Below are positions 154 through 17,345 of a stretch of 17,345 bases of DNA, piece by piece. The stretch is from a virus (Duplodnaviria > Heunggongvirae > Uroviricota > Caudoviricetes), in the IMG/VR virus record IMGVR_UViG_2713897073_000004; one strand, given 5' to 3'. The notes beneath the pieces were generated by a model that was not told where the DNA came from, searched no databases, and saw nothing but the letters and a program-made list of their open reading frames with translations. How positions within the stretch are numbered: position 1 is the first letter of the stretch; the number at the start of each line of letters is the position of its first letter. The position numbers and the translations under genes were made by a program.

Positions 154-162
154 ATCACCAGT

Positions 163-2657: not shown

Positions 2658-2781
2658 AGGTATTAGAGGGACAGGAATAGATTCTTATCCTCTAAATAAT
2701 TAAACCAATGCACCGCACTTTGAAGCCCAAGGCTTGCAAGGTGTTTTTTCTTTTAACCAAATAGAATAAGGAGGCTAATTA

Positions 2782-2958
2782 ATGAAATATTTTACTCCAC
2801 AGGATGTAGTAGAAGCCTGGAAACGTGGTGAGATCAACCGCTTTAAAGTAAGGATGTATAGAAACACCGCTCGCCGTTGTGGTTATCCAGAGCGTGAAAA
2901 ATGTTTTGACGATGCACTGAAAATTATTGATGAACTGCGTAAAGCTGAGAAAGAATAA
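2782..2958 (+). CDS. hypothetical small protein (58 aa), first gene of the AT-rich operon
   Basis: ATG 2782 preceded by AAGGAGG (2768-2774, 7-nt spacer); MKYFTPQDVVEAWKRGEINRFKVRMYRNTARRCGYPEREKCFDDALKIIDELRKAEKE, stop TAA 2956-2958. Not in the ORF track (under 60 aa). The minus-strand track ORF 2779-3012 is its antisense shadow. Confidence 0.6.
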   Translation: MKYFTPQDVVEAWKRGEINRFKVRMYRNTARRCGYPEREKCFDDALKIIDELRKAEKE

Positions 2959-2980
2959 TAGACAAGAGAAGGAGAAAACT

Positions 2981-3148
2981 ATGAGCGAAACCAAGAAACC
3001 AATTCCACGCACTTACCTACACGTTGACCCTGAAATTTTCAAGATTTTATTTTCTGAAGCCAAGAAAAGGCAAGTTATGGTCAGTGATTTGATGTTAGAA
3101 ATCATTACTGAAGCAGCAGAGAACATCAAACAAAAAAAGGGTAAGTGA
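2981..3148 (+). CDS. ribbon-helix-helix (CopG/Arc/MetJ-like) DNA-binding protein, 55 aa
   Basis: Start at the internal ATG 2981 of track ORF 2927-3148, with GAAGGAGA 5-6 nt upstream. MSETKKPIPRTYLHVDPEIFKILFSEAKKRQVMVSDLMLEIITEAAENIKQKKGK shows a beta-strand (RTYLHVD), helix A, short turn, helix B pattern typical of RHH proteins. Fold call is from pattern only. Confidence 0.5.
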   Translation: MSETKKPIPRTYLHVDPEIFKILFSEAKKRQVMVSDLMLEIITEAAENIKQKKGK

Positions 3149-3201
3149 TCCTCATTCACTTTAGTAGCGCATTAAGCGTGATTTATAAGGAGATAATTCT
3201 A

Positions 3202-3882
3202 ATGTCTAAAATTAAATTGATTCGTGAAAAACACCAGTATGTTGATAAACAAACAGGAGAAATTAAAGACCGAACTTTGAATATACCGCATTACTTTTGT
3301 GAGATTGAATTCATCTACTCCTCAAATATTGAGGATGGAAGAGCGAAGTTTAGTGCAGAAATGCAAAAATTATATTGCTATGTTTCAGATTGGGAGAAAT
3401 CAGGGGGGATATGTTTTGAAACACAAACGAAGTTAAGTAAGGTTTGTGGCTGTAGCCGTAAGACAGTTAATGAATTGATTGGTCTTATGATTAAAATCGG
3501 TCTTTTAGAAGAGGTCGGAGAACGAATCCCAAAACGTCCATTAAAATTACGTGCGCTACCTCTCACAGATGCACATATTACTCCCCCTAGAGAGTCATCA
3601 CTACCTGATCCTTCTGAGAAAGAAGACGAATCTAATGAAATATTGAATGTTTCCGAAATCATCCTTGAAGAAGAAACACAGGAATCAGCGTTCCCTGAGC
3701 GGCCCGAAATTTTTACTTGGCTTCTTTCCCTTGATAAGAAGAAACCACCGCACGAAGAAACAGAAGATTTTGTAAAACGTGTATTAGATTCAAAGAATAT
3801 CTATCTTGAGAAACAGGCTTTTCACGATCTGATAATATCTCTAAGAGAAAAAAGTGAAATATACGATTCGATACCCTTCTAG
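3202..3882 (+). CDS. winged-helix DNA-binding protein, HTH_36-like (replication-initiator/regulator type) with acidic C-terminal region
   Basis: Start at MSKIKLIRE (ATG 3202, AAGGAG 9 nt upstream); the track ORF starts earlier at 3145 with no RBS. KLYCYVSDWEKSGGICFETQTKLSKVCGCSRKTVNELIGLMIKIGLLEEV matches the HTH_36 pattern seen in phage/plasmid replication-initiation proteins. C-terminal half is E/D/P-rich. Confidence 0.55.
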   Translation: MSKIKLIREKHQYVDKQTGEIKDRTLNIPHYFCEIEFIYSSNIEDGRAKFSAEMQKLYCYVSDWEKSGGICFETQTKLSKVCGCSRKTVNELIGLMIKIGLLEEVGERIPKRPLKLRALPLTDAHITPPRESSLPDPSEKEDESNEILNVSEIILEEETQESAFPERPEIFTWLLSLDKKKPPHEETEDFVKRVLDSKNIYLEKQAFHDLIISLREKSEIYDSIPF

Positions 3883-3894
3883 GAGAATAAATAA

Positions 3895-4164
3895 ATGACT
3901 TATAACATCACTATAGGAAACAAAACTATTGAAATAACTGAAAGCGGATACAACATTTTAAAAGCTATTTTGGAAATAGAGTTTTCACCACCGACAGTGG
4001 TTAGCTTTTGCAGCTTAGGTTGCTACAGCACCCAACATGTGAACAATTGGTTAAGCCATTTTACATCGTTCGGTGTGCTGGATTATGAAGGGATTAACAG
4101 CACTACATTTCGTCTTTTGAAATTAAACAAAGATTTTGAATTGTTTATCACAAACAATCAATAA
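3895..4164 (+). CDS. hypothetical protein (89 aa)
   Basis: ATG 3895 with AGGAGA 8 nt upstream; 13 nt after the preceding stop; same strand and tight spacing as neighbours. Confidence 0.5.
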   Translation: MTYNITIGNKTIEITESGYNILKAILEIEFSPPTVVSFCSLGCYSTQHVNNWLSHFTSFGVLDYEGINSTTFRLLKLNKDFELFITNNQ

Positions 4165-4260
4165 CAACAGATCGGGCAATACATATGGCAAATGCATTTA
4201 TGGCGATATTCATCGTAACTATGGCATTCAGTTTTTATAATCCACATAAAAAGAGGGAAA

Positions 4261-4644
4261 ATGGGAAGAAAGAAAAAGAACAACTTAAAACGTATTGAAA
4301 AAAACAGTAATTTCAATTCAACAAGACAACGTCCACCGACACACACCAATAACGAAATTCCAGGGGAAGAGATAATCTTTATTCTTGAAACAGAATCCCC
4401 TGAATTAAGTGATCAAGAATTAGAAATAATCCAGTCAATGCCAGGCGTTTACTTTCGCCCAAGAACAAGGAAACAAACTATCATTTCTGATGGCACTCTG
4501 AAACGTTGGCAGCTTTTAGGGTTTAGCTCCTATCATCATTTTTTGGGATTTAACGCTTTCAATAATTGTGTAGGTGGTGCATCGGAAGTCGATCTGATGG
4601 CTCATTTAGAAGATACATTAGCTTCTAACAAACGTTCTAACTAA
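4261..4644 (+). CDS. hypothetical protein (127 aa), basic N-terminus
   Basis: ATG 4261 preceded by AAAAAGAGGGAAA; N-terminus MGRKKKNNLKRIEKN is highly basic. Confidence 0.55.
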   Translation: MGRKKKNNLKRIEKNSNFNSTRQRPPTHTNNEIPGEEIIFILETESPELSDQELEIIQSMPGVYFRPRTRKQTIISDGTLKRWQLLGFSSYHHFLGFNAFNNCVGGASEVDLMAHLEDTLASNKRSN

Positions 4645-4702
4645 TAAAAATGATGGGCGTATGTATAAGCGCCCAATGAAAATATTCAATAAAGGAAAAA
4701 TA

Positions 4703-4933
4703 ATGATTAACTATCAACTATTAGAAACAACATTTTTTAAAGAAGCAAAACAACTTGCAGAAGTGTTTATTTCACTGGCTGAACGAGCAAAAGAAGAAAA
4801 TGATTTTGCCTTGCTTGATGATGTGCTGGATGACATTGCAACCTATCGTATACCGCTACAGATTGCACTAAACAAGGCTAAACAGATTCAGCAAGAGATG
4901 GAATCAGCAGATCAAGGAGAGATTGCACAATGA
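4703..4933 (+). CDS. hypothetical helical protein (76 aa)
   Basis: Start taken at internal ATG 4703 (MINYQLLETTFF...), preceded by AAAGGAAAAA; the track ORF begins at 4661 with no RBS. Stop overlaps the next start (ATGA). Confidence 0.5.
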   Translation: MINYQLLETTFFKEAKQLAEVFISLAERAKEENDFALLDDVLDDIATYRIPLQIALNKAKQIQQEMESADQGEIAQ

Positions 4934-5241
4934 CAGACAACATTCTGGAAGTTATGGACACTCTTTCGGATCGGATGATCACCCTACAGACACGTATCAA
5001 TCAAGCCTATTCAGATTTATGCGATTACACGCTCTCTCAATGCGTAATTAGCTTAATGAAGGTGAATGTAAGCCTTGACGATTTTATCTCTCTGGTGAGC
5101 GATTTAGAGCAGCTATCTGAGGACGATGCCAAGATGTGCACTCAAACCATCACAGACACCGCCAGCACGTTAAAGGCTGCAAGTGAAGAGATTCAGCAAT
5201 TAGTAGATGATTTAGCAAAAAGTGCTATTTTCTCTAAATGA
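4930..5241 (+). CDS. hypothetical acidic helical protein (103 aa)
   Basis: ATG 4930 overlaps the upstream stop in ATGA (translational coupling); last gene of the AT-rich operon. Confidence 0.55.
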   Translation: MTDNILEVMDTLSDRMITLQTRINQAYSDLCDYTLSQCVISLMKVNVSLDDFISLVSDLEQLSEDDAKMCTQTITDTASTLKAASEEIQQLVDDLAKSAIFSK

Positions 5242-6205
5242 TAATGAAAATCATTTGCATTTATAATGATTTTGTTATATAATAATTTTAGGGGTAGATA
5301 AAAAGGTTTTGACTGGTGTTAATCCTTTTCCTGTCATAAATCCCTGCATATGGAAGGTGATAGCCTCAAGGGTTGAGTGGCATTAACCTCTAACAAATAT
5401 TACCTTCCATCTCTCAAGAAGTTTTAGAATAATCATAACTCCCTCTTTGATTGTTGATTGTTTCTACGTTGTGTTGATGAATGTTGTTAGGCATTGTGCT
5501 TAATTTTGATAAAAGCGGGTAGGTGTTATCTCCTTGCCCTTCTCGCTCTTATTTTTCATCTGTGCTTATCCTAAAGCTCCTTATTTTGTCCGAAAACATT
5601 AAAGAGCCTTACACTGATAGTTATATTTTATAACTATTTACTAACATCACTAAACTCATTATTTAATGACAGAAGTTAGTAACAGAATAATCTATTAAGT
5701 TGTTGTCAAAAACAATCATCTGCATAGCGTTAGCCGCAAGCAGAGAGAGTTTAACTAAGAATGGAAGTATTGATAAGTATACCAGTTTACAAAAAAGATT
5801 TTTTCTAAATTGCAAATTCTTTCCAAAGCGGTAGATTACTGTGGTGTAGTTAATCCCTATTAAAATTTAATCTGTGAGTAGATTGGAATAGTGATTCCTT
5901 AAAATCTGACTGGTGCATCCACACCATGAAAGATAGCGGTTTAGCCCACCGCAACCAGAATATCAGGTCTTAGTGATTCCAGTGGGGCAACTCCTAAGAG
6001 CCTTTCTTCTAAGATCTGATATTCACTCTTTAAGCATATCATCAAGTATATTTAAAAAGTGTATTTGCTGATATGTTTAATCCTCTTATAGTTTAACTTA
6101 TCAATTATGTAATTGCCCGCACGTTAAAGCCCCTTTGCTGGTCAGAATTAACCTCTTACGGCATTGGGGCTTTTTATTTGTCTGGCACTAACAGGAACGT
6201 TATTT

Positions 6206-6403
6206 ATGAAACAAGAAATGATTATCAGCAAAGACGGGGAAACGATGATTGTTAGTGATGAAAACCTCATTAAGGTTGCCGCACTGTTGGGAGTTACTCC
6301 TGAAAGTCTTCATTCTACCACTGCTCAATTATTTAAATCGGCTGATGCGGTTAGTCTTGCTGATGCCCTTAAATCTAAAATTAAACAACTGAAAGGAAAA
6401 TAA
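6206..6403 (+). CDS. hypothetical protein (65 aa), first gene of cargo operon
   Basis: Start taken at ATG 6206 (MKQEMIISKDGE...), with AGGAA about 9 nt upstream; the track start at 6164 lies inside a GC hairpin/T-run and lacks an RBS. Confidence 0.5.
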   Translation: MKQEMIISKDGETMIVSDENLIKVAALLGVTPESLHSTTAQLFKSADAVSLADALKSKIKQLKGK

Positions 6404-6407
6404 TCTT

Positions 6408-6791
6408 ATGGCTAACCCATATGGAAAATTAAAAGCAGTGAATGCGGATAATTCCCGTTCACGCTGTAAGGTAGTAGCTTACGCTGCTGATCCAGTGCTG
6501 CAAGATCGCCTCGTCAAACTGGCTTCACCTCTCACTGACGATCTTATTGTCGGGGCTTTGCTGAAAGCCGATGGCACCAAAGCAACAACCGCATCTGATA
6601 TTGCTCACGTAGTAGTTGAACCGGCTTATGAAGGACAGGAAAGCGTAGTGGTTGCACATCCTACTTTCGTTATTCTGGCTGAAGATGGGATTGAATTTAA
6701 CAGCATGGAAAAGGCAAGTGTTATTGCAAAACTGCAATCTCTCGGCTTTGTAATTGCTGGTTATGAAGAACTTGCGATCCCTACGACTTAA
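6408..6791 (+). CDS. hypothetical protein (127 aa)
   Basis: ATG 6408 with AAAGGAAAA upstream, 4 nt after the previous stop; codon usage is more balanced than in the AT-rich operon. Confidence 0.65.
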   Translation: MANPYGKLKAVNADNSRSRCKVVAYAADPVLQDRLVKLASPLTDDLIVGALLKADGTKATTASDIAHVVVEPAYEGQESVVVAHPTFVILAEDGIEFNSMEKASVIAKLQSLGFVIAGYEELAIPTT

Positions 6792-6805
6792 CAAGGAAAA
6801 TAATA

Positions 6806-7837
6806 ATGAATGATTTATCAACATATTTTGGCGTTAATACTGCGGTAGTAACTCCATTTGCTTATGAGAATGCACTTAATACCCTGATTACTAATCTCGA
6901 TCTGTTCGATGTGCAATATCATACAGAAAACAGCATTCTTCTTACCGACCTGATTGATCAGTTTGTGCAGGTAGCTGGGGAAACCTCGCCTTACACTCAA
7001 AGCAGCTGGAACGCCTCTAAACGTCAGGAATGGTCAAACAAACTTTTCCAGATGAAGCACGTCGGCAGTATTAACGCTGTTACTTCTCGTGACCTGGAAC
7101 AATACAGCCGCCAATATCCAAACCGTTCTGATGCTATGCTGGTAGCGGTTAATGATTTCTCTGAGGCTCATTACCGTTCACACGCAAACCGTGTTGAAGT
7201 GGATCTGATTACCGCGCTGCTGGGACTGAAAGTTGAATCTGAATATGCCGGACAAGGTGATCTCGACTTCCTCGACGGTCAGGCTAAAACCACGGTACCC
7301 GCTATCGACTTTGCATCGACTAGTGTTAACCCGTTCCTTGCTATTCGTAAAGCGGTGCGCTTACAGAGTGAAAAGCTGGGGTCTGGTCTTGCTGCAAAGC
7401 GAACTGGTGTAATTATCTTTGCTGCTGGCGCTGCTGCTGATGGTTTGTCATCTAACCCGCTGATCAGTGACATGGTGAAATATGCAGGTGATGCGAGTGC
7501 TACGGCCCTGTTTACCCGTATGGTTGATTCTAACCCAGCCTATGACTCTTTCCAGATTGGTGGGATCACTGTTATTGATGTGTCAATGTTTCCTGAGATT
7601 GTTGCTCACATCGGAGAGAACGGTTTCGCAATTGTTCCGGTAATGGATAAGTCGGCACAGTGTTACCAGCTTCATAGCGGCGTTGGTGTGCGTCATGCTG
7701 AGTTAGGTCAAGATGCCGTGTTACATCACCAATATCTAATCAAGGATGAATTCCAATTCCCATCTGTGGTTACTGAGACATCTTATCTGCCAGTAAACAA
7801 CATTCCGCAAGCTATCATCTTCGGATCTGCTGCGTAA
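6806..7837 (+). CDS. hypothetical protein (343 aa), no recognisable catalytic motif
   Basis: ATG 6806 with CAAGGAAAA upstream; long clean ORF 14 nt after the previous stop. No Walker, HUH or nuclease motif found by eye. Confidence 0.75.
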   Translation: MNDLSTYFGVNTAVVTPFAYENALNTLITNLDLFDVQYHTENSILLTDLIDQFVQVAGETSPYTQSSWNASKRQEWSNKLFQMKHVGSINAVTSRDLEQYSRQYPNRSDAMLVAVNDFSEAHYRSHANRVEVDLITALLGLKVESEYAGQGDLDFLDGQAKTTVPAIDFASTSVNPFLAIRKAVRLQSEKLGSGLAAKRTGVIIFAAGAAADGLSSNPLISDMVKYAGDASATALFTRMVDSNPAYDSFQIGGITVIDVSMFPEIVAHIGENGFAIVPVMDKSAQCYQLHSGVGVRHAELGQDAVLHHQYLIKDEFQFPSVVTETSYLPVNNIPQAIIFGSAA

Positions 7838-7977
7838 TAAAGCATTAATAGACGATTCCCCATAGGGGCAATAAGGTAAGGGATAATCATATAAGTAAAA
7901 TATGCGCTGTCTCTTGCCCTTATTTTTTTTCTACTGTCTACAGACCCAAATAAAAATATATATGTGAGAGAAAACCA

Positions 7978-8190
7978 ATGAACGCAGAAAATTCACAGGC
8001 ATTAATTCTTAAATCTGTAAAAGAACTGGCAGCTATTAGCGAGGAATCAGTTATAAACACATCGGCGCTTTGCCGCCTTTTAGAAATTGATGCAAATAAT
8101 GTGCGGCAGCGTGTGTTTCAGACTGGATGCAGCACTTTTGAAGCAATTGCATACTACTGTTCTAAAAACAATAACAAACAACAATTATAA
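7978..8190 (+). CDS. small putative HTH protein (70 aa)
   Basis: ATG 7978; segment NTSALCRLLEIDANNVRQRV looks like a helix-turn-helix; sits directly upstream of the 613-aa gene. Confidence 0.5.
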   Translation: MNAENSQALILKSVKELAAISEESVINTSALCRLLEIDANNVRQRVFQTGCSTFEAIAYYCSKNNNKQQL

Positions 8191-8208
8191 TGCAGGGAAA
8201 CTATTAGA

Positions 8209-10050
8209 ATGCTTGAAATTAATGCCGCACGTATCTCGAACGTTATAACATTTACGACCGACTCCAAAAGCTTACAGAAAGCTAAGAATGAAGTAGAAAA
8301 ACTTCGTAAACAAATGGCGGCGGTGAAAGATATAGAATTGCGTGTTAAGACACATAAACAATCAACCGCTAAAGCAAAAAAAGACGTAGACGATATTGCT
8401 AAAAAGCAAGCACAGGCAGATAAAGCCAATGCTAAAGCACAATTAGCCGCTCAACGTGTAGTTGCAAGAGAACAAAAAGCCCTGGCAGCACGGAAAGAGA
8501 AGGCTGAATTAAAGCTTTTAGACGTTGGAGCAAGCATTAGCGCATTGCACCGTCTTTCTGTAGCGGAACAATATAAAGCTATTGCACAGGCTAGAGAAAT
8601 TGCCCTCCAATATGAAAGAGGCGCTATTAGTCTGGCACGTATGAATAGCCAAATGAAACGCCTACAACAGCAACAACGTAAGATTAATGGCAATCGTAAC
8701 GCTCACGCTAAAGCCTATGCACCTGTTAAGGGTAGCGGGAGTATTGGCGGCGGTGCTGCGGCTGTTATGCTGGGCGGCTTAGGCGCTGGCGCTGCATATA
8801 TGGCTATGAGCAAAGCCTCTGAATTTGTTACTAACAGCTTTGCGAATGCTGAAACGCTGGGTGAATTGTATAGCCGTGCCAAGCTGGGCGGTGTAGACGT
8901 TAACCAGATGAACAATATTGAGCAATGGGCGTATAAAAACGGCGTTGATTCAATGATGGGCGAACAAGGTAAACGTAAGTATCTCGATCAGATGAAAGAT
9001 GTGCGTGAACGTGCAACCAAATCTTATGATGAAGCTGAATATGTAGTTGATAAGAAAACTGGTAAAGGAGAATGGAAGGGCGGCGATAGCGGCATCAATA
9101 CTTTAATGAATGAAGGATTCCTAACTAAAAAGGATCTAAAAGACTTTGCTGATAATCCGGCTGGTCTGGTTAGTAAAGCAGTTCAGGGAATGGTAGCTAA
9201 AGGCTATTCAGATGCACAAATCGGTAGTCGTCTGGAAGATCTGGCTGATGATTTGATGCTCACCTCTAAATACTGGACACGCTCCGCTAAAGAAGTGGAA
9301 CAATCAGCACGAGAACAACGAGAATCAGGGCGCTGGGTAACACAGGCACAACAGGAAAGCGTTATTAAATTCCGTGAACTGAATAATGCACTTAGTGGGC
9401 TTTCTGACTCACAAGGGATCGCCTTTGTTGATGGCTTTATGAAATCTCTTGATCCGAAAGTGATTGAAGAGTTTAAAAAGAGCATGGTTGCAATGCTGCC
9501 AATGTTTACCAAATTAGGCGAGGCTGTAGGTGGTCTGCTTAATGCGATCATGAAAACTATCAACTGGCTGATGAAAAACGACGAGAAGACGGCAGCTATT
9601 CAGAAGAATTTAGGTGATGCACCGCCACTATCTAACGAAGGAATGAAGCAGAATCTTTCTAATCTCACTCCTGATCAATATAAAGGCGCTGGCACCGGAA
9701 CAATTAAGCCAGATAACAGCAATTCCCTGGTTAACACTATTAAAAGCTGGTTTATGCCAGAAGAAACGGTAGGTGGGGCACAGGCTGTAAATCAATACAG
9801 TCTCGAAGGACAAAACATTGCAAATCTGAAACAGAGTGCAGCACAACAAGCTTTCAAGGCTCCTTCTTACACCTTTGCACCTGTTATTAACTTCAATCCA
9901 GAATTACAAGTAAATGCAGAAGTGCCGCTAACTATCGAATCAGACACCGGACGATTGAGCGAATTTATCGACTTCAAATCAAAGGCATCTTCCGCTGAGT
10001 TTAGCAAGCTATTAACGCTTGGTGTTATGTCAGGCGGGTCAACCTATTAA
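8209..10050 (+). CDS. large hypothetical protein (613 aa): N-terminal K/A/Q-rich coiled coil, glycine-zipper hydrophobic segment, large C-terminal domain
   Basis: ATG 8209 with AGGGAAA upstream. Residues about 20-165 are K/A/Q/E-rich heptad-like sequence; residues about 175-201 are GSGSIGGGAAAVMLGGLGAGAAYMAMS (nt about 8731-8811), a Gly/Ala-rich membrane-type segment; the remaining roughly 400 aa are mixed. Composition recalls tape-measure or pilot/ejection proteins, but no homology is established. Confidence 0.8.
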   Translation: MLEINAARISNVITFTTDSKSLQKAKNEVEKLRKQMAAVKDIELRVKTHKQSTAKAKKDVDDIAKKQAQADKANAKAQLAAQRVVAREQKALAARKEKAELKLLDVGASISALHRLSVAEQYKAIAQAREIALQYERGAISLARMNSQMKRLQQQQRKINGNRNAHAKAYAPVKGSGSIGGGAAAVMLGGLGAGAAYMAMSKASEFVTNSFANAETLGELYSRAKLGGVDVNQMNNIEQWAYKNGVDSMMGEQGKRKYLDQMKDVRERATKSYDEAEYVVDKKTGKGEWKGGDSGINTLMNEGFLTKKDLKDFADNPAGLVSKAVQGMVAKGYSDAQIGSRLEDLADDLMLTSKYWTRSAKEVEQSAREQRESGRWVTQAQQESVIKFRELNNALSGLSDSQGIAFVDGFMKSLDPKVIEEFKKSMVAMLPMFTKLGEAVGGLLNAIMKTINWLMKNDEKTAAIQKNLGDAPPLSNEGMKQNLSNLTPDQYKGAGTGTIKPDNSNSLVNTIKSWFMPEETVGGAQAVNQYSLEGQNIANLKQSAAQQAFKAPSYTFAPVINFNPELQVNAEVPLTIESDTGRLSEFIDFKSKASSAEFSKLLTLGVMSGGSTY

Positions 10051-10097
10051 TCATCACTGTGGGGCTGTTTAGCCCCCTTAAATAAGGATTACAAATT

Positions 10098-10775
10098 ATG
10101 GCAATGGGTCCGTTAACCATTGGTCGCCCGACTGAGGCGAAAATCAACAGCACAAGCAACGATAGCAACGGTAGAACAACTAAAGGGGGTAACGGCTTTG
10201 CGATCATTACCTCTAATCTCGGCAGTGGTGCAAATGCTGCTTACAATGACTACCAGGCATTATCATTTGATAGCGTGGAATCGACGAGAGTTAGCAGAAA
10301 TGCAGACGTTACAAGCTATGCTGTCGAATCAGGATCAGAAGTTAGTGATCATGTTCAAATACGGAATAACAAGTTCACATTACAAGGGCGTATCTCTGAA
10401 ACCGTATTGAAGCTCAATCCTGATATGATTAAGAATGCTGGAATTAACGGCAATCGACGTATGCTTATGCTTGAATACCTAAATCAGTTGATGGACAGTC
10501 GCCAACCTTTCCTACTTGTCACTGAGTTAAAAAATTATGACAACGTTGTGTTAGTTGGCATGTCTTACGCAGAAGAAGCAAGCGAAAGCCTATTGTTTAC
10601 TCTTGATTTTGAGCAAATCCGTCTTGTCTCTAAAGCAACTACAAGCGCAATTGCGGTAAAAACAGCACCAAATAAATCTGTAGGAGGCCAGGTTAAAATG
10701 CAGGTAAATACAACAGAACAGAAAAATCAAAAAAGCCCAGGGCAAGACGTTGTAACGCCAGTATTTAAACAATAG
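10098..10775 (+). CDS. hypothetical protein (225 aa), S/T/N/G-rich N-terminus
   Basis: ATG 10098 with AAGGA upstream; last gene of the cargo operon; the overlapping alternate-frame track ORF 10120-10410 is rejected. Confidence 0.7.
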   Translation: MAMGPLTIGRPTEAKINSTSNDSNGRTTKGGNGFAIITSNLGSGANAAYNDYQALSFDSVESTRVSRNADVTSYAVESGSEVSDHVQIRNNKFTLQGRISETVLKLNPDMIKNAGINGNRRMLMLEYLNQLMDSRQPFLLVTELKNYDNVVLVGMSYAEEASESLLFTLDFEQIRLVSKATTSAIAVKTAPNKSVGGQVKMQVNTTEQKNQKSPGQDVVTPVFKQ

Positions 10776-10816
10776 CCTTAAACGCCTATGAAACGCTCTG
10801 TAACGAGATAATCATA

Positions 10817-10848
10817 AAAGAGGCATCAGCCTATATTGAAGCCTCTTT
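10817..10848. terminator. hairpin between convergent genes; candidate bidirectional terminator
   Basis: AAAGAGGC (10817-10824), 16-nt loop, GCCTCTTT (10841-10848), between the cargo operon end (10775) and the integrase stop (10856); A/T-rich on both flanks. The loop is large, so stability is uncertain. Confidence 0.35.
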
Positions 10849-10855
10849 ATTACGT

Positions 10856-12133
10856 CTATAGCGTTGTTTTACGCCTTAAATTTGATTTTTTATTGATTGA
10901 TAAGCCTTTCTCTATTTCAGGATAGCGTAAAAGCTCAATATATTTTTTAAGCTCTACTGGAGAAGCTGCATTTTTGCTATATGTGCGGAATGTTTCTGTA
11001 TTGCCGCGTGTATGGCCCAGGAGAAGGGCGATCCTGTCTTCTGGAATTTGATTTCGATCAAGAAGCTGTGCTACTCCGTGTCTCAGAGAATGAAACACTT
11101 TCCTTTCTGTTCCCTTTTCCCCTAAAGCCTTTCGTTTAGCTCTTGTAAATCGTTGTGTATGCCACGTAGAGCGTTTACCGTCAGCACGCTCTGTAATGCT
11201 GGCGTGATAGAACAAAAAGCCATTGTGAGGCTTTTCACGAAGAGATAACACCAATGGAGTGATAAGGCTATGCACAGGCACAAGACGTGCCGCAGCTTTC
11301 GTTTTTCCCTGTGTGATTTCAAAACACAGCACACCTTCGATCTCTTTCACATCGTCTATTGTGAGACTTGCTATCTCATTGATCCGCATCCCTGTATATA
11401 AACCGATAAGACATAAAGCCGTCATTTCTTTGTTTTCTGCTGAATTACCGGAAAATACTTGCAACACCTGCAATAGCTCTTTGTTAGAAAATGCCTCGTA
11501 GCTCTCTCTACTTTGTGCCACATCAAGCCTATGCCCTCGCCAGGGGGAGAGCGCCCTTTCTGGCGCATCGTGGTAACGTGATGAAGCTAATTCCCATAGC
11601 TGGGCCATTGGGCTGATATAATTTGCAATTGATTGTTGTGAAAGAGTTTTTTGCATGTGTTCAATCCAGCCTGTAACAGTGGTGCGGCTTACATCTTGCA
11701 ATGCAATATCAGGCTTTTTACGGTAGGAGAGAAACATCTCTACCGCTTTTCTTGCCTTAGCTAAAGTGGCTGGCTTCTTCTTCGTGCTGTTAATTGTCAG
11801 GTAGATTTCAAGAATTTTAAGCAATGACGGACACGAAGACGCTGTATCTTGCATTCTGGTAGCTGTTTTGGCGTATTTAGCCTTACTGCGTAACAGTTCC
11901 AGCGTGTTTTCTATTGTGCTGTTTACAGGGGCAACACTCTCCCGTAAGCAATGGTATTCATCTGCAATCTGATCACGCTTTCTACGTGCAACACGAAGAT
12001 TACTTGTGTGCAGACTTCTGACAAACGTCCTTTTTCCTTCAAAAAAGGGCTGCATATACACAGGCAGCGTGATCCTTAAATAGTAGTTACCGTAAGAATC
12101 ACAGATTAAGTATTGGTTAGGCTTGTATCTCAT
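10856..12133 (-). CDS. tyrosine site-specific recombinase/integrase with DUF6538-like N-terminal domain
   Basis: Catalytic signature of tyrosine recombinases: TGMRINEIASL (Arg), VFHSLRHGVAQLL (HxxR), LLGHTRGNTETFRTYS (His...Tyr). N-terminus YLICDSYGNYYLRITLP...GKRTFVRSLHTSN fits the YYFRRR-type arm domain. Start placed at the internal ATG 12133 (GGAG 5 nt upstream); the track start at 12190 has no RBS. Confidence 0.85.
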   Translation of the reverse strand: MRYKPNQYLICDSYGNYYLRITLPVYMQPFFEGKRTFVRSLHTSNLRVARRKRDQIADEYHCLRESVAPVNSTIENTLELLRSKAKYAKTATRMQDTASSCPSLLKILEIYLTINSTKKKPATLAKARKAVEMFLSYRKKPDIALQDVSRTTVTGWIEHMQKTLSQQSIANYISPMAQLWELASSRYHDAPERALSPWRGHRLDVAQSRESYEAFSNKELLQVLQVFSGNSAENKEMTALCLIGLYTGMRINEIASLTIDDVKEIEGVLCFEITQGKTKAAARLVPVHSLITPLVLSLREKPHNGFLFYHASITERADGKRSTWHTQRFTRAKRKALGEKGTERKVFHSLRHGVAQLLDRNQIPEDRIALLLGHTRGNTETFRTYSKNAASPVELKKYIELLRYPEIEKGLSINKKSNLRRKTTL

Positions 12134-12310
12134 AAAATCTCCGGCTAAAGTGTCGGAGCGTTTGTAATGTGAAAATTGATTGTGACGCATAGAAAATGAT
12201 TATTTTTCTATAAGATTCAATCAATTAGTAATGGTCGTAGTGATGGCATTAACACGAGATTAATCGAGTGTTTTACTCCTATTATCGGCACCATTCAAAC
12301 ATCTCCCCAA

Positions 12311-12396
12311 GTCTACTAAAGTCTTTCAAAACCCCTTATAATCCACGTATTAAAGCCCCGTTCGTCTTTTGACGTCTACTAAAGTCCCTCAAAATC
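12311..12396. repeat. pair of 23-bp direct repeats between the two integrase genes; candidate att core or integrase arm sites
   Basis: GTCTACTAAAGTCTTTCAAAACC (12311-12333) and GTCTACTAAAGTCCCTCAAAATC (12374-12396): 20/23 identical, first 13 nt exact, 63 bp apart. Confidence 0.6.
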
Positions 12397-12458
12397 TACG
12401 GTCAGATGGGGGTACTTATGGGGGTATTTGCTGTTCGGTTTAGTGGAGGTACCCCCAA

Positions 12459-13673
12459 GTGAAACTCAATGCCCGTCAAATAGACACAGCCAAGCCAAAA
12501 GAGAAGGCTTACAAGCTGGCCGATGGTGGCGGTTTGTATCTCTTGGTAAAACCTAATGGAGGTAAATACTGGCGACTTAAATATCGTGTAGCAGGTAAAG
12601 AGAAGCTATTGGCACTAGGTGTGTATCCTGAGGTTACTCTAGCCGATGCTCGGGCAAAACGTGAAGATGCGAAAAGAGGTATCGCTGGTGGTATCGATCC
12701 GATGGAAGCGAAACGAGAGGAAAAGATTGCCCGGGAAACGCAGTTAAACAACACCTTCAAAGATATTGCCCTTGAGTGGCACAGCAGCAAATTAAAAAAA
12801 TGGTCTGCTGGTTATGCTTCAGACATCCTCGAAGCCTTCAACAAAGATGTGTTCCCTTACATTGGCAAAAAACCAATCGCCGAAATCAAACCACTTGAAC
12901 TTCTGAATGTGCTGCGGCGCATCGAGGGGCGCGGTGCGACAGAAAAAGCCAAAAAAGTGAGGCAGCGGTGCGGGGAAGTTTTCCGCTATGCAATAGTCAC
13001 TGGTCGCGCAGAGTATAACCCTGCACCAGACCTTACTAGCGCGATGCAAGGCCATGAATCTAATCATTACCCTTTCCTTACGACCAAAGAATTACCTGAT
13101 TTTTTCAAGGCATTATCCAGTTACTCAGGAAGCGCATTGGTTGTTATGGCGGCTCGCCTACTGATTATCACCGGCTTGCGAACTGGCGAACTACGTGGCG
13201 CATTATGGGATGAAATTGATTTCAACAAGGCTATATGGGAGATACCCGCTTCACGTATGAAAATGCGGCGGCCTCATATTGTGCCATTGTCTGAGCAGGC
13301 TCTTTCGCTTATTGGGAAGATTAGAGAAATAACAGGCAATTACCCTCTTATGTTTCCCGGGCGCAATGATCCAAGGAAAACAATGAGTGAGGCCAGCATA
13401 AACCAAGTGTTTAAGCGCATTGGCTACGCTGGACGTGTAACTGGTCATGGGTTCCGACACACTATGAGCACGATTTTGCATGAGCAGGGCTATAACACCG
13501 CGTGGATAGAAACGCAGCTCGCTCACGTTGATAAGAACTCAATTCGTGGCACATACAACCATGCGCAATATCTGGATGGACGGCGGGAGATGCTTCAATG
13601 GTATGCCGACTATATGGATTCTCTCGAGCATGGCGGAAATGTGGTGCATATGGTGTTTGAAAAACACGCATGA
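12459..13673 (+). CDS. int: P4-family tyrosine integrase
   Basis: GTG start 12459 with GGAGG 9 nt upstream. N-terminal arm-binding domain typical of P4-type integrases (AKPKEKAYKLADGGGLYLLVKPNGGKYWRLKYR), catalytic Arg (ITGLRTGELR), HxxR (GHGFRHTMST), and C-terminal LAHVDKNSIRGTYNHAQYLDGRREMLQWYADYMD with the catalytic Tyr. Confidence 0.92.
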   Translation: MKLNARQIDTAKPKEKAYKLADGGGLYLLVKPNGGKYWRLKYRVAGKEKLLALGVYPEVTLADARAKREDAKRGIAGGIDPMEAKREEKIARETQLNNTFKDIALEWHSSKLKKWSAGYASDILEAFNKDVFPYIGKKPIAEIKPLELLNVLRRIEGRGATEKAKKVRQRCGEVFRYAIVTGRAEYNPAPDLTSAMQGHESNHYPFLTTKELPDFFKALSSYSGSALVVMAARLLIITGLRTGELRGALWDEIDFNKAIWEIPASRMKMRRPHIVPLSEQALSLIGKIREITGNYPLMFPGRNDPRKTMSEASINQVFKRIGYAGRVTGHGFRHTMSTILHEQGYNTAWIETQLAHVDKNSIRGTYNHAQYLDGRREMLQWYADYMDSLEHGGNVVHMVFEKHA

Positions 13674-13980
13674 AACAACTGGACAAGTATACAGAGGTTT
13701 ACTAAAGTATAGGGGAGTAGATTGATAAAAACTCACAGAGGATTGCTATTTAACAGTTAGCCTTGGAGAAGGGCAATCGCTCTTTTATAAACGAAGGTGT
13801 ATTGAGCCTTCTACGCTGCTGAAAAGCGGAATGTTCTTTAACAGGCTTTGGCGCTGACAAAGCGCAATTGTTCTTTAAAACTACTGGATGTCACGCCTAA
13901 TAGCGTGATCCTGCCGAAATGCAGGGTAGCTCTACCCTTGTGGAGCAAACAAACCAAAACAATCTGACTATCTTTTATAA

Positions 13981-14013
13981 AAGACCGCAATATGTTTTTC
14001 ATATTGTGGTCTT
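13981..14013. promoter_or_regulatory. inverted repeat upstream of alpA; candidate operator
   Basis: AAGACCGCAATATG (13981-13994), TTTTT, CATATTGTGGTCTT (14000-14013): 14-bp arms, 13/14 complementary, about 90 bp upstream of the alpA start. A second palindrome GGGTAG-CT-CTACCC lies at 13924-13937. Confidence 0.4.
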
Positions 14014-14100
14014 TGGCGTATTCGACATTTGACGCAAATAAAACTCTCGCCATTCGTTGCAGGAGGGGGTTATTGCGTCATTAGTACAGGATATTAATAA

Positions 14101-14304
14101 ATGGCTAATTACAATTCATTAATTCGTCTCTCTGAAGTTCAAAGGCGAACTGGTTATAGCAAAGCATGGATTTATCGTCTTATTAGTCAGGGGAGGTTCC
14201 CTAAACAGGTAAAAATTGGAAGTCGGGCAATTGCTTTTGTTGAGTCTGAAATAGATGAATGGATTGAGAAGTGTATATTAGAATCTAGAGACGAGGTGGC
14301 CTGA
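14101..14304 (+). CDS. alpA: AlpA/Vis-family transcriptional regulator (excisionase-like HTH)
   Basis: 67 aa; LIRLSEVQRRTGYSKAWIYRLISQGRFPKQVKIGSRAIAFVESEIDEWI is the classic AlpA signature; positioned just downstream of a P4-type int, as in P4-like islands. Confidence 0.85.
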   Translation: MANYNSLIRLSEVQRRTGYSKAWIYRLISQGRFPKQVKIGSRAIAFVESEIDEWIEKCILESRDEVA

Positions 14305-14735
14305 TGGAAAAGAAAAACCGCCCATTACAGGCGGCTAATTCAGATATTCGCGTATCTGATGTTACGCCCCTGACAAAATCCCTTCAAGCACCAAAGCGCA
14401 CGCCGAAAAAGCATCGTGCCCGAGTCTATATGCTGCGTACTGGTATAGAGGGATGGACAGAAAATGACATTCTTCGCTACTGCCGTCTGTCTTCTGGTCG
14501 TAACTATGCAACAGAGTTAGAACGCCAGCTTGGAATCACTCTGGAGCGTATCGACGAAAAGAATCCTGATGGTATCGGAACACACCTTCGCTACCGTTTC
14601 TCCTGCCGTGGTGATGTTCTGAAAGTGATCACTCATGTTAACCATCTTGCGAACATAAATGATCACAACGGACTTTCTCAGCAGGAAATTGCCGACATTC
14701 TGAAACTCTACCCGGACGCGTTTAACGCCGCCTAA
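14304..14735 (+). CDS. hypothetical protein (143 aa)
   Basis: ATG 14304 overlaps the alpA stop (TGATG), indicating coupling; basic N-terminus (PKRTPKKHRAR); no motif recognised. Confidence 0.65.
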   Translation: MEKKNRPLQAANSDIRVSDVTPLTKSLQAPKRTPKKHRARVYMLRTGIEGWTENDILRYCRLSSGRNYATELERQLGITLERIDEKNPDGIGTHLRYRFSCRGDVLKVITHVNHLANINDHNGLSQQEIADILKLYPDAFNAA

Positions 14736-14747
14736 CGGAGACTAAAA

Positions 14748-15581
14748 ATGAACATCGAAAAAAGCAGATTAATTTCTGAGGCCGCCCCTCATCTGAACGC
14801 CTCTCTGGGCACAATTAACGGTAATGAATTTGCCGCAATTGTCCCGGTTATTTCTGGTCATATAGGCGGGCGTGAAACCAATATTGTTAGCGCAAAAGCG
14901 TTACACAAAGCGTTGGGCGTGGGAAAAGACTTCTCTACATGGATCACTGATCGCATCTCTGAATATGACTTCACCATTGGGCACGATTACTCAGTCCATA
15001 AAACAATTTCCCCAAATTTGGGGAAAAGCCCGAATGACGCGGCTTACAGCAAGATTAAGCAGTCTGGCAGACCCGGCAAAGACTATCTGTTAAGTGTCGG
15101 AATGGCGAAAGAACTGGCAATGATCGAACGCAATGATCAGGGTCGCGCTATCCGCCGTTATTTCATCCAGTGCGAGAAAGAATTACAGCGTAGCGTGCCT
15201 GAAATCGCCGCCCGCTATCGTCGCCAGCTAAAAGCCCGTATCAGTGCCGCAAACAACTTCAAGCCAATGTGCGATGCGCTGAATATGGCCCGTGCCGAGA
15301 TGGGGAAAACGACGCAGCAACACCACTACACAAACGAGAGCAATATGATTTCTCGTATCGTTCTTGGTGGGCTAACTGCTAAGCAGTGGGCGCGGATAAA
15401 TGGCTATTCTGGCGAACCTCGCGACCATATGAACGCAGAACAGCTTGAGCACCTCTCATATCTCGAAAGCACCAATATCACGTTAATTGATATGGGCATG
15501 GAATATGAGCAGCGCAAAGGAGAACTCACCCGCCTGTCGCAACGCTGGCTCGCCAAGCGTCTGGAGGCGGTCCATGTTTAA
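14748..15581 (+). CDS. putative antirepressor, AntA/AntB- or KilAC-like (277 aa)
   Basis: ATG 14748 with ACGGAG upstream. Segments FSTWITDRISEYDFTIGHDY and GKDYLLSVGMAKELAMIERNDQGRAIRRYFIQCE resemble phage antirepressor domains. Family assignment is from remembered motifs, not a search. Confidence 0.6.
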   Translation: MNIEKSRLISEAAPHLNASLGTINGNEFAAIVPVISGHIGGRETNIVSAKALHKALGVGKDFSTWITDRISEYDFTIGHDYSVHKTISPNLGKSPNDAAYSKIKQSGRPGKDYLLSVGMAKELAMIERNDQGRAIRRYFIQCEKELQRSVPEIAARYRRQLKARISAANNFKPMCDALNMARAEMGKTTQQHHYTNESNMISRIVLGGLTAKQWARINGYSGEPRDHMNAEQLEHLSYLESTNITLIDMGMEYEQRKGELTRLSQRWLAKRLEAVHV

Positions 15582-15756
15582 GCCGACAGGAACACCACAA
15601 CCTCAAAAACGCTACAAAGATGCCCACGGAGCACTCGTTACTGTCGAAAGCGTGTCTCACAACCGAGTGACGTTTTATCGCGACGGGTATCAATCGCCAT
15701 GCGTACAACCGCTGGCACGTTTCATGAAGGAGTTCGCGGAGGTTAACAAATGCTAA
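15574..15756 (+). CDS. hypothetical small protein (60 aa)
   Basis: Start taken at internal ATG 15574 (MFKPTGTPQPQKRYKDAHGALVTVESV...), which overlaps the AntA-like stop by 8 nt. The track ORF 15487-15756 extends upstream inside the preceding gene and is rejected as an N-terminal extension. Confidence 0.5.
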   Translation: MFKPTGTPQPQKRYKDAHGALVTVESVSHNRVTFYRDGYQSPCVQPLARFMKEFAEVNKC

Positions 15757-16382
15757 CCGCCCAGAAGAAGATATTTTCACTGGCTGGTATGTCGCCAAAA
15801 TCCAGCAATATGACAGCAAAGTCAGACATTAATACAGCAGATACAAGCAAAGTTTATCATTTGCTGGTGGTAGGAGCGGATGCCTTAACTATGTCAGAAA
15901 TTACGGTCGATGGTGTTAGCGTTGAGAAGGTCAGCGGCTATGCCAGAGAATTTCTGGTCGTAGATGACCTGTTCTGCTCGTGTAGTGACTCCACAAAAAC
16001 ATTCGTCCACGCGCGTGACGTTAACGAAATGAGCGCGATGTACTGTGCTTCTGGTTCTTCCAATAGTGAGTTTTCGGAGTCCATAAAAAAGAGCTTGCCG
16101 TTATGCGGCAACACGGTTTATGGTTATAAGGCACCTCATAAAACGGGTGCCGGGATTGGCGTCCTAAAAATTCTGAAGGCGACATATGACGCGCCGAGCG
16201 TCTTTTTTTATGTCGTAGGTCTGACTCACCCATTTTTTGGGCGTTGGTGTATAATCCAGCGCCTTTGTCAATCAATGGTGGCTCAGGCGGGGGCTTCTTC
16301 GGAAGCGCCGGTATCCATTCAGAGCCGGTTACGCCAACCCTGTCTGGGCTACCACCAGCGAAATTGGCGTTTCCGGTGGTAG
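15750..16382 (+). CDS. hypothetical protein; 3' boundary doubtful because the ORF runs through a terminator, a promoter and a structured RNA
   Basis: ATG 15750 overlaps the upstream stop (ATGCTAA), supporting a real 5' end. The last roughly 65 codons (from about 16188) overlap a GC hairpin plus T7 run, a TATAAT box and a stem-loop-rich region, and translate to low-plausibility sequence ([17 protein letters not shown]...RNWRFRW). Confidence 0.4.
16188..16209 (+). terminator. intrinsic terminator-like hairpin plus T-run
   Basis: GACGC (16188-16192), loop GCCGA, GCGTC (16198-16202), then TTTTTTT (16203-16209). Short GC-rich stem directly followed by seven T. Confidence 0.5.
16250..16255 (+). 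promoter_or_regulatory. candidate -10 element (TATAAT) for the leader RNA and downstream operon
   Basis: Perfect TATAAT at 16250-16255, about 40 nt after the terminator T-run; no good -35 hexamer at 16-18 bp spacing, so the promoter call is weak. Confidence 0.3.
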
Positions 16383-16393
16383 CGTAACCTGCT
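16276..16393 (+). ncRNA. candidate structured leader or antisense-type regulatory RNA (C4/CI-like immunity RNA or attenuator)
   Basis: GGCTTC-TTCG-GAAGC hairpin (16293-16306); TGGTGG (16276-16281) can pair with CCACCA (16352-16357), while CTACCACC (16349-16356) can alternatively pair with GGTGGTAG (16375-16382); AGCCGGTTACGC (16323-16334) is 11/12 complementary to GCGTAACCTGCT (16382-16393), which lies 8 nt upstream of the GGAGG of the next gene. Confidence 0.35.
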
Positions 16394-16412
16394 ATCTGAA
16401 GGAGGCTGCCAC

Positions 16413-16607
16413 ATGCTGGCTACTACCCCTACCCAAAAAACGCAATTTATCTGGATTATCGCCGCAGTTCGCCGCGATTGCCCGACAATTACCGCCAAAA
16501 TTCATCATATTGCTGCCGAGTCTGAACGCGATGCTCGCCGTTCTCTGGTGCGCGATCACGTCTGCTTTTTTGCTGGTCGTATCCGCATGGAGGTGGCACA
16601 TGATTAA
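16413..16607 (+). CDS. hypothetical small protein (64 aa)
   Basis: ATG 16413 with GGAGG 7 nt upstream; first gene after the structured leader. Confidence 0.6.
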   Translation: MLATTPTQKTQFIWIIAAVRRDCPTITAKIHHIAAESERDARRSLVRDHVCFFAGRIRMEVAHD

Positions 16608-16818
16608 AACCTACGATGTGCATATGGATCCCCTCGAACGCACAAGCCAGATCATCACACTGACAGAAGTGATTAACGACATTCTGGTGAGCAACTCTCC
16701 CTCACGAGACGAAAGACTGAAGGCGTTACTCGCGATATTGGATCTCGCCGTTCGTGACGTTCATTTCCTGCTGGAAGGTGGCGAAATGCCAGTAAAAACG
16801 GGGGCAACCAATGAATAA
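16600..16818 (+). CDS. hypothetical small protein (72 aa)
   Basis: Start at internal ATG 16600 (MIKTYDVHMDPLERT...), with GGAGG 16588-16592 upstream; overlaps the previous stop by 8 nt. The track ORF begins at 16510 inside the upstream gene. Confidence 0.6.
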   Translation: MIKTYDVHMDPLERTSQIITLTEVINDILVSNSPSRDERLKALLAILDLAVRDVHFLLEGGEMPVKTGATNE

Positions 16819-17005
16819 CTCAATTAATACCCCTCGCCTTACGTCCGCACTTCAATTAATCGAGCAAGCAGCGGCTGTCCTGGTTGCTGTCAGTCTTTCG
16901 GCTGAAGAAATGGACGCTGCTGATGTCGTGGATGCGATTAAAGCGTGCTCATCTTTGGTTAACGATGCCCGTGCAGAGCTGGTAATTCTTGGTGGTGAAA
17001 AATGA
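16811..17005 (+). CDS. hypothetical small protein (64 aa)
   Basis: ATG 16811 overlaps the upstream stop by 8 nt; alanine-rich helical sequence. Confidence 0.6.
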   Translation: MNNSINTPRLTSALQLIEQAAAVLVAVSLSAEEMDAADVVDAIKACSSLVNDARAELVILGGEK

Positions 17006-17265
17006 ATATCAACTTAATTTATCGTCATCCGTGTGAGCTGGAAATTGAATCATTGCTGGGGCGCGAAGAGCCATATCCAGACACATTCACTCCCGCAGAT
17101 TGCGCGACTGAACGGCTTACCAGAGCGCGCACAGGTCTGGTTCATGTGATGAATGAGATTATTCCCTCGGTGGGAGGGGAACAGGCGACAGTAATCAATA
17201 GCTGGCTACAAAAAGTTACCTCCCTGATAGATATCAGTTTAATCGATGTGGAGAGTGCGAAATGA
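17002..17265 (+). CDS. hypothetical protein (87 aa)
   Basis: ATG 17002 overlaps the upstream stop (ATGA). Confidence 0.6.
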   Translation: MNINLIYRHPCELEIESLLGREEPYPDTFTPADCATERLTRARTGLVHVMNEIIPSVGGEQATVINSWLQKVTSLIDISLIDVESAK

Positions 17266-17345
17266 CCAACATCCAGCTCATTGAAGCGCAATGTCGCATC
17301 GAACAGGTTCAGACTGTTTTAGGGTTCTGGCTTGAAGGGGCCAGC
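17262..17345 (+). CDS. hypothetical protein, 5' fragment (continues beyond window)
   Basis: ATG 17262 overlaps the upstream stop (ATGA); open to the window end (MTNIQLIEAQCRIEQVQTVLGFWLEGAS...). Confidence 0.5.
   Translation, partial: MTNIQLIEAQCRIEQVQTVLGFWLEGAS

Follow-up and report, generated by a model that had tools for sequence, protein, structure and literature searches.

A copy of the thrW 3' end between two divergent integrase genes of Escherichia coli points to a tandem array of two integrative elements

Results

Two divergent integrase genes and the spacer between them

The analysed stretch of DNA, referred to as the window at its full length of 17,345 nucleotides, contains two genes for tyrosine recombinases that are transcribed away from each other. 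The sequence to the left of their junction is called element A and the sequence to the right element B. The following features were assigned at the junction:

10856..12133, minus strand: integrase A, a DUF6538-type tyrosine recombinase of 425 aa (Pfam, catalytic motifs)
12134..12274: A-side spacer, right arm of the attachment site of A with the leader and promoter region of integrase A
12275..12294, plus strand: shared attachment core, a repeat of the thrW 3' end consisting of ACTCCTATTATCGGCACCA plus T, i.e. ACTCCTATTATCGGCACCAT
12295..12458: B-side spacer, arm of the attachment site of B with the leader of integrase B
12459..13673, plus strand: integrase B, a P4-type tyrosine recombinase of 404 aa with a GTG start (Pfam)

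The minus-strand open reading frame extends from 10856 to 12190 and contains the Pfam domains DUF6538 (36.6 bits at a cut-off of 27), Phage_int_SAM_5 and Phage_integrase (63.3 bits). According to RefSeq integrase A starts at 12133, and a GGAG is located 8 nt upstream of that ATG. Its catalytic motifs read TGMR, HSLRH, LGH and RTY. The GTG start of integrase B is preceded by GGAGG, and its domains Arm-DNA-bind_3 (DUF4102), Phage_int_M and Phage_integrase represent the P4-type architecture, with Pfam E-values of 1e-28, 1e-34 and 2e-26 that all clear the curated cut-offs. With 301 bits against the NCBIfam model PRK09692, which has a cut-off of 434, integrase B is related to this specific model and not a member of it. 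Both proteins are full length and keep the R...HxxR...H...Y catalytic motifs, and they share about 23% identity in the catalytic domain only. The initial annotation had described a DUF6538-type integrase on the minus strand and a P4-type integrase on the plus strand that diverge from one intergenic region of 325 bp. Pfam and the RefSeq start confirm coordinates, orientation and families, and the gene ends at 12133 and 12459 leave exactly these 325 bp (12134-12458) as spacer.

It had also been stated that the window is free of tRNA-like sequence throughout. Neither ARAGORN nor Rfam detected a complete tRNA in the window, and to this extent the statement stands. However, positions 12275-12293 inside the spacer (ACTCCTATTATCGGCACCA) match the final 19 nt of tRNA-Thr(CGU), encoded by thrW, without a mismatch and span the tRNA from the end of the T-loop through the 3' strand of the acceptor to CCA. 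Identity with thrW extends by one further base to the T at 12294, which results in a 20-nt repeat (ACTCCTATTATCGGCACCAT). Chance matches to the thrW 3' end were obtained in none of 200 shuffles. The distance from integrase A to this core, the right-hand repeat of element A, is 141 bp, and integrase B lies 165 bp from it.

The two arms of the spacer differ in their repeats. On the A side (12134-12274), which travels with A to a plasmid site and to a junction with the chromosomal backbone, there is an imperfect 23-nt inverted repeat (12174-12196 and 12204-12226). On the B side a 21-nt sequence occurs twice in direct orientation (12311-12331 and 12374-12394), a 12-mer is repeated in tandem (12406-12429), and an inverted repeat (12402-12415 and 12449-12462) overlaps the GTG start of integrase B. 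Core and B-side spacer show no visible difference from the spacer between thrW and the integrase gene in strain 99-3165, and in diverged variants of the B-side spacer the motif GTCTAYTNAAGT is conserved at both positions. The repeats of the B arm are putative arm-type integrase binding sites, and it is plausible that integrase B is autoregulated via these repeats. A consensus scan of the spacer for sigma-70 consensus promoters detected none.

Position of the intact thrW gene

Since the scans of the window had revealed no complete tRNA, the tRNA was sought in related genomes. The window derives from the proA-thrW locus of the E. coli chromosome, and thrW is a frequent hot spot of integration (PMC7545054). 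Strain E66 is 99.3% identical to the window across the junction (10800-14800). It has the order proA, tRNA-Thr(CGU), a block A of about 13 kb that ends in the DUF6538 integrase, the core, the P4-type integrase and a block B of about 17 kb, a degenerate core and the backbone, which after the array consists of a fragment of a LysR-family gene followed by paoD. In the near-identical E. coli strains E66 and GPEC1186, about 605 bp separate the intact thrW gene on the left from the base that corresponds to window position 1. The window thus starts to the right of the tRNA, whose seemingly anomalous lack is an artefact of this start.

A search of the flanks beyond the window for the tRNA and its partial 3' repeat had been proposed. 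When made in related genomes, it recovered thrW and the repeats, one of which is contained in the window. E66 has three core copies in direct orientation: one in the tRNA, the exact 19 nt between A and B, and a degenerate one at the right end of B. The latter reads TTCCTATTATC-GCACCATT, with one base deleted and two substitutions, and with such a degenerate core at its right B may be fixed in place in E66. The backbone that follows the third copy has the same sequence as the one following the core in genomes with other occupants. For the source of the window, thrW and the right end of B, both outside the window, are inferred from genomes that are 95-99.9% identical.

Independent occurrence of elements A and B

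A comparison with genomes that lack one or both blocks had been suggested as a means to define the insertion boundaries. Genomes that lack one block place the boundaries at the core, with breakpoints at 12275 and about 12303, and each block is found alone. Strain 99-3165 carries B and no A. Here thrW abuts integrase B, the match to the window begins exactly at 12275, and from this position to 17345 both sequences are collinear with 99.1% identity. B was found directly beside thrW in many genomes, and the view that P4-type integrases adjoin the 3' end of a tRNA gene applies to this locus, with 165 bp between the integrase gene and thrW in 99-3165 and many further genomes. Strain 23CRST012 carries A and no B: its copy of A is 99.9% identical to that of the window, and on the right only the core separates it from the backbone. 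A tRNA-Thr fragment of 46 nt on the left of A was left behind by a further element. In GPEC1186 the order is thrW, A, core, a truncated P4-type integrase, a MarR gene and vat. A is bounded by core repeats in E66, 23CRST012 and GPEC1186, the flanking repeats are exact, and the ends of A are identical wherever it occurs.

For a census of the junction, an 801-bp probe was compared with 5,426 complete E. coli genomes. The junction was spanned in 70 genomes. Many other genomes matched on the A side only, with matches that stop at about 12303, or on the B side only, with matches that begin at 12275 next to an annotated tRNA-Thr. When both integrase genes were used as probe, the intact head-to-head pair was present in 15 of the 5,426 genomes, seven of which are O104:H4 including outbreak strains. 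In dozens more genomes integrase A faces a truncated 'Arm DNA-binding' pseudogene. Element A itself was at least 80% complete in 85 of the 5,426 genomes. The cargo downstream of the P4-type integrase in O104:H4 differs both from that of the window and from that of E66.

Gene content of element A

The window contains all of element A except its left-most part. The following features were assigned to it in addition to integrase A:

1..12274: element A, integrative, about 13 kb, 39.5% GC, located in the thrW 3' end; all but the left-most 605 bp or so
704..1261, minus strand: serine recombinase of the resolvase/invertase type near the left end of A (Pfam Resolvase, E 1e-38; phrog_125 DNA invertase, E 2e-62)
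3145..3882, plus strand: winged-helix HTH_36 protein that resembles replication initiators (weak match to Pfam HTH_36; PHROG replication-initiator families, E 6e-6)
6408..6791, plus strand: 127-aa protein, candidate for a capsid cement or decoration protein (directly upstream of the capsid gene, like the 130-aa gp123 of phi92)
6806..7837, plus strand: predicted HK97-fold major capsid protein of 343 aa (PF03864 matches of the family, AF2 model)
8209..10050, plus strand: tape-measure protein homologue of 613 aa (phrog_16051, E 3e-32; phi92 gp134, E 7e-21)
10098..10775, plus strand: tail tube initiator (Dit-like) homologue of 225 aa (Pfam Dit_like, E 2e-27; phi92 gp135, E 4e-53)

We assign the 343-aa protein as a probable HK97-fold capsid protein because members of its family match a capsid family and because the predicted fold matches known capsids. 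PF03864 Phage_cap_E, the lambda-E-type capsid family, is matched by nine of 13 family members, and the AF2 model, which is of moderate confidence (pLDDT 63, pTM 0.66), matches the capsids of ICP1, PhiTE, Sf14 and lambda with a best E-value of 6e-12. Direct searches with the protein against phages, Pfam and NCBIfam gave no match, and comparison with phi92 gp124 was not significant with either single sequences or profiles. Direct similarity to the capsids of phi92 and phage inny is limited to an N-arm motif. In a scan of viral contigs, the capsid family was found only in predictions of prophage type (20-58 kb, mostly from isolate genomes), which have no bearing on packaging. The 127-aa protein encoded upstream may be a cement or decoration protein, a weak suggestion given that its match to phi92 gp123 (E 0.98) is not significant.

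Two further proteins match tail proteins of phages. The 613-aa protein aligns end to end with the tape-measure protein of inny, and the best 25 of 134 homologues in phages all come from myophages of about 140-155 kb, mostly of Escherichia and Klebsiella; the genus names Justusliebigvirus and Phapecoctavirus occur among the 134. The 225-aa protein is about 53% identical to proteins of phAPEC8-like phages, and for both proteins nearly all of the best homologues in phages belong to myophages of the phi92/phAPEC8 type. In phi92, gp134 and gp135 have the roles of tape measure and tube initiator, respectively (PMC13450770). The homologues of capsid, tape measure and tube initiator in A are arranged as in phages. 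No portal, protease or terminase was detected in A.

The likely start of the initiator-like HTH_36 protein is the methionine of MSKIKL at 3202, and as candidate iterons A offers only one 22-nt tandem repeat at 1805-1848. Window positions 2969-3593 are 95% identical at the DNA level to the Justusliebigvirus phage inny, and the N-terminal 140 aa of the initiator-like protein share 87% identity with gp184 of inny, the only one of 50,697 phage records with this domain. In gp184 this part is followed by another HTH_36 domain and, at the C-terminus, by an endonuclease domain (phrog_681, E 4e-18; Pfam MUG113 at the cut-off).

Element A at a secondary plasmid site

On the IncF conjugative plasmid pEND_Eco19019-1, A alone is inserted in the sopC repeats next to sopAB. 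The left junction of plasmid and A reads ggtcccACTCATATT/ATCGGCACCAtcaag (also written ACTCATATT/ATCGGCACCA) and the right junction of A and plasmid gttttACTCCTATT/gttagtctg (also written ACTCCTATT/gttagtctg). The plasmid site has only ACTCNTATT in common with the core, and the mismatched fifth base stays with the parental side, which is why the exchange is placed within the TATT at 12280-12283. These junctions show a reciprocal exchange, as is characteristic of site-specific recombination at a secondary site. Integrase A is the only tyrosine recombinase that was carried with A to the plasmid, which indirectly supports the idea that A can move by integrase A alone. The same design is seen in a Klebsiella relative of A, a 12.7-kb element at tRNA-Gly(CCC) with a 21-bp repeat of the tRNA 3' end and a DUF6538 integrase that is located 91 bp from the right-hand repeat and transcribed inward. 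The tRNA-Thr of phage inny was considered as an alternative target of A and discarded, as its 3' end is unrelated to the core.

Gene content of element B

The window covers the first 5 kb or so of element B, for which the following features were assigned in addition to integrase B:

12295..17345: element B, about 17 kb in total, 47.5% GC
14101-14304: AlpA
14304-14735: PM1773-family protein
14748-15581: AntA
15750-16382: Ash-family protein
16131-16208: isrK RNA
16271-16359: C4 RNA (C4-type antisense)

Beyond the window, in strain E66, B contains an Icd-like gene and a DUF927/TOPRIM primase gene. Element B also carries genes annotated as P22-type ejection proteins and an approximately 100-bp copy of P22 gene 3. 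A P22 pac site had been considered for B, but a search with up to three mismatches found no exact copy, and next to the gene 3 fragment there is only a degenerate pac-like site with 15 of 22 positions shared. By its gene content B appears to be a satellite-type island of the P4/PICI kind. It has a P4-type integrase next to a tRNA, AlpA, Ash, a C4-type RNA, an Icd-like protein and a primase in common with P4-like satellites and Gram-negative PICIs, whereas psu, sid and delta genes were not seen.

Discussion

The spacer between the two integrase genes very probably marks the point where two independent integrative elements, inserted in tandem into the thrW 3' end, adjoin. Tandem insertion was among the explanations offered in the initial annotation, and it agrees with the thrW 3' repeat between the blocks and with the occurrence of each block alone elsewhere. 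Head-to-head integrase genes need not indicate an unusual element. The core at 12275-12294 serves as attR of A and at the same time as attL of B. Each element has its integrase gene beside its own attachment site and transcribes it inward; this gene is located at the right, tRNA-distal end of A and at the left, tRNA-proximal end of B, as is usual for P4-type islands. Where A lies between the tRNA and B, the integrase genes diverge with one core between them. The same product could arise if A entered the tRNA-proximal site of a resident B or if B entered the distal site of a resident A.

Other histories of the junction would have to account for the same observations. A and B could form one composite element with two integrases, one of them captured, that moves as a unit of about 30 kb. 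The recurrence of the junction in 70 complete genomes and of the intact pair in 15 would agree with such a unit, as would the three core copies in direct orientation, the outer pair of which could in principle release A and B together. However, a core repeat lies exactly between the blocks, each block is found without the other and ends at that core, and the B-type cargo next to A varies, with E66 and O104:H4 differing downstream of the integrase. Furthermore, the GC contents of A (39.5%) and B (47.5%) are 8 points apart. The capture of a second integrase by one element, as suggested earlier, is also at odds with the presence of A alone in a plasmid and of A next to the backbone in 23CRST012, and we consider the composite very improbable. 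Still less credit can be given to a nested insertion of A inside B or of B inside A, which would have interrupted the recipient. It had likewise been suggested, and one element landing just upstream of the integrase gene of the other could indeed give head-to-head genes. Yet A is located between the tRNA and an unchanged B, which from 12275 to the end of the window is collinear with A-less 99-3165 at 99.1% identity including the whole spacer up to the tRNA core, the ends of A are constant wherever A is found, and no B sequence occurs to the left of A.

A frozen relic without present recombination, in which both blocks are decayed remnants and the integrases fossils, would be unlikely, though it deserves more weight than the two preceding scenarios. 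The right-hand core of B is degenerate in E66, many genomes of the B2 lineage carry only a truncated P4-type integrase next to A, and copies of A often contain IS insertions. On the other hand, both integrases of the window are full length with intact catalytic motifs, the flanking repeats of A are exact, A recently reached a plasmid by a clean site-specific event, and A is 99.9% identical between the window and 23CRST012 although its neighbour in the latter is the backbone and not B. Within the tandem array, both elements are presumably still mobile, and each integrase probably acts only on its own element. Cross-reaction of the two integrases may occur, because A and B use the same core.

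For element A, we tentatively propose an identity that may well turn out to be wrong and to which we give somewhat less than an even chance: A could represent an unrecognised satellite family of Enterobacteriaceae of about 13 kb that parasitises virulent phi92/phAPEC8-like myophages (Stephanstirmvirinae). Such a satellite would supply its own capsid, tape measure, tube initiator and perhaps cement protein and depend on the helper for the remaining parts of the virion. Among these phages, at least inny may have responded with a chimeric nuclease of the Odn kind, built on the DNA-binding domain of A. In Odn of phage ICP1, a DNA-binding domain of the satellite is fused to a nuclease. The combination of the DNA-binding domain of A with an endonuclease domain in inny gp184 resembles this arrangement and, by analogy, would fit a conflict between satellite and helper. 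The match to inny concerns one phage and could also be a simple relic of recombination. A literature search of incomplete coverage returned nothing relevant on DUF6538 or on a satellite of phAPEC8, phi92 or Stephanstirmvirinae phages.

Among known satellites, A is reminiscent of PLE of Vibrio cholerae with its phage ICP1 and of capsid-forming PICIs (cf-PICIs): it integrates, is about 13 kb long and encodes a putative replication initiator together with homologues of virion proteins from a lineage of virulent myophages. PLE is not known to encode a capsid protein of its own. The cf-PICIs have a full set of capsid and packaging genes and are not known to carry tail genes. A differs from both by its predicted combination of capsid, tape-measure, tube-initiator and possibly cement genes. 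Should A prove to parasitise virulent phages of the phi92 type, E. coli would have its own counterpart to PLE and ICP1, which would matter for therapy with phages of the phAPEC8/phi92 type. Under the same premise, the 'vat island' and the thrW island of O104:H4 would contain a hidden satellite.

Irrespective of the nature of A, the arrangement itself is an ordinary tandem array with a textbook mechanism, and its junction is present in many sequenced genomes, intensively studied outbreak strains among them. Where integrase genes stand head to head without a visible tRNA, short tRNA-derived cores that remain unseen by tRNA finders can resolve tandem arrays. The analysis also sets exact boundaries for two thrW islands of pathogenic lineages, namely O104:H4 and vat-carrying APEC/UPEC. 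Three unrelated integrase families (IntF, P4-type and DUF6538-type) compete for thrW, two of them via the same core of 19-20 nt.

The closest precedent at this locus is found in Shigella flexneri, where phage SfI was shown by experiment to enter attL of resident SfX at thrW and thereby create a tandem array (PMC3306764). That array and the one in the window share the proA-thrW locus, the use of the tRNA 3' end, att cores between the elements and at the outer ends, and elements with their own integrases. The window array differs from SfI and SfX in its two families of tyrosine recombinases that use a near-identical core of 19-20 nt, and in the opposite placement of the integrase genes, which makes them divergent. 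The cryptic prophage CP4-6 of E. coli K-12 shares its tRNA target and its backbone flank (ttaaaatcaaagagttacccc) with the array of A and B. Its integrase gene is located at the tRNA-distal end and directed inward, like that of element A. However, its integrase IntF belongs to a third family with about 24-25% identity to integrases A and B in local alignments over 72-152 aa, and its repeat of about 47 nt reaches into the anticodon arm, compared with 19-20 nt in the array of A and B.

A vat (vacuolating autotransporter) island at thrW of APEC and UPEC was reportedly described by Parreira and Gyles in 2003. The junction of the GPEC1186 type with vat corresponds to the known vat island (PMC6592367). 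PAI-APECO1-thrW of APEC has a size of 20 kb and a GC content of 41% (PMC7545054), and from size, GC content and locus we infer that the vat island includes A. The vat island of GPEC1186 has A and the core in common with the window, but its right-hand partner has decayed to a truncated P4-type integrase, whereas the right-hand partner in the window is an intact satellite-like element with a full-length integrase and not a remnant next to vat.

Element A, the left block of about 13 kb with the DUF6538-type integrase, carries genes homologous to those for four virion proteins of phi92/phAPEC8-like virulent myophages, and the phage gene order is kept. The features of element A in the window are:

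704-1261, minus strand: serine invertase/resolvase of the Hin/Pin type, near the left end
1805-1848: tandem 22-nt repeat GGTAGTAACGATATTACACATC, two copies, in an AT-rich non-coding stretch
within 6408-10775: possible cement protein, 127 aa
within 6408-10775: HK97-fold capsid protein, 343 aa
within 6408-10775: tape-measure protein, 613 aa
within 6408-10775: tube initiator, 225 aa, about 53% identical to the myophage protein

Neither a portal nor a protease or terminase could be detected in element A, and this integrative element may be an unrecognised satellite. Its structural genes are about 95% identical between strains, while segments near the regulator/initiator region have been swapped; compared with three other loci (L001, L003, L004), element A is mosaic at window 254-602, 1761-2148 and 3195-3551. 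RefSeq labels for the gene in the regulator/initiator region vary between HTH-domain, 'LexA family' and 'transcriptional regulator'. The tandem repeat is a candidate iteron or origin. A Klebsiella relative (L008) has five 26-nt iterons (5159-5292), and a short Phage_integrase fragment where element A has the serine invertase/resolvase. For this enzyme of element A, neither an obvious invertible segment nor an obvious target could be recognised.

The lytic phage inny (MN850601.1 119446-120781; L006 2501-3836) shares 95% DNA identity with window 2969-3593. Its gp184 and the initiator-like protein of element A have a DNA-binding domain in common (87% amino acid identity over 140 aa), which among 50,697 phage records was found in inny only. 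In gp184 this domain forms a fusion with another HTH_36 domain and with an endonuclease domain. ICP1 Odn is an anti-satellite nuclease, and its domain layout is similar to that of gp184.

Element B, the right block of about 17 kb with the P4-type integrase, carries two adjacent RNAs that both overlap its Ash-family ORF:

16131-16208: isrK RNA (Rfam, 59.9 bits)
16271-16359: C4 antisense RNA (Rfam, 76.2 bits)

The pair looks like an immunity RNA module of the P1/P7/P4 type. Window 15898-15999 matches P22 gene 3 (small terminase) at 89% identity, over the portion of that gene next to the pac site. It is inverted relative to the genes of element B, and the pac site itself is conserved at 15/22 positions only. 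Together with the P22-type ejection protein genes annotated by RefSeq in element B of strain E66, outside the window, this stretch hints at a link of element B to P22-like phages.

Element A was also found on a conjugative IncF plasmid, where it is inserted into the sopC centromere repeats:

L005 (NZ_CP126938.1) 3376-3394 and 20451-20470: positions of this insertion of element A

This is a secondary site that has ACTCNTATT in common with the core repeat of the tRNA gene thrW. With this insertion element A has gained a conjugative vehicle, and partition of the plasmid may be disturbed. At thrW itself, at least three unrelated integrase families are in use, with differing repeat lengths (L003 8335-8394; L013 4706-4755). 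The repeats left by elements A and B comprise 19-20 nt of the tRNA, whereas IntF of the cryptic prophage CP4-6, like the element left of A in strain 23CRST012, leaves a fragment of 46-47 nt.
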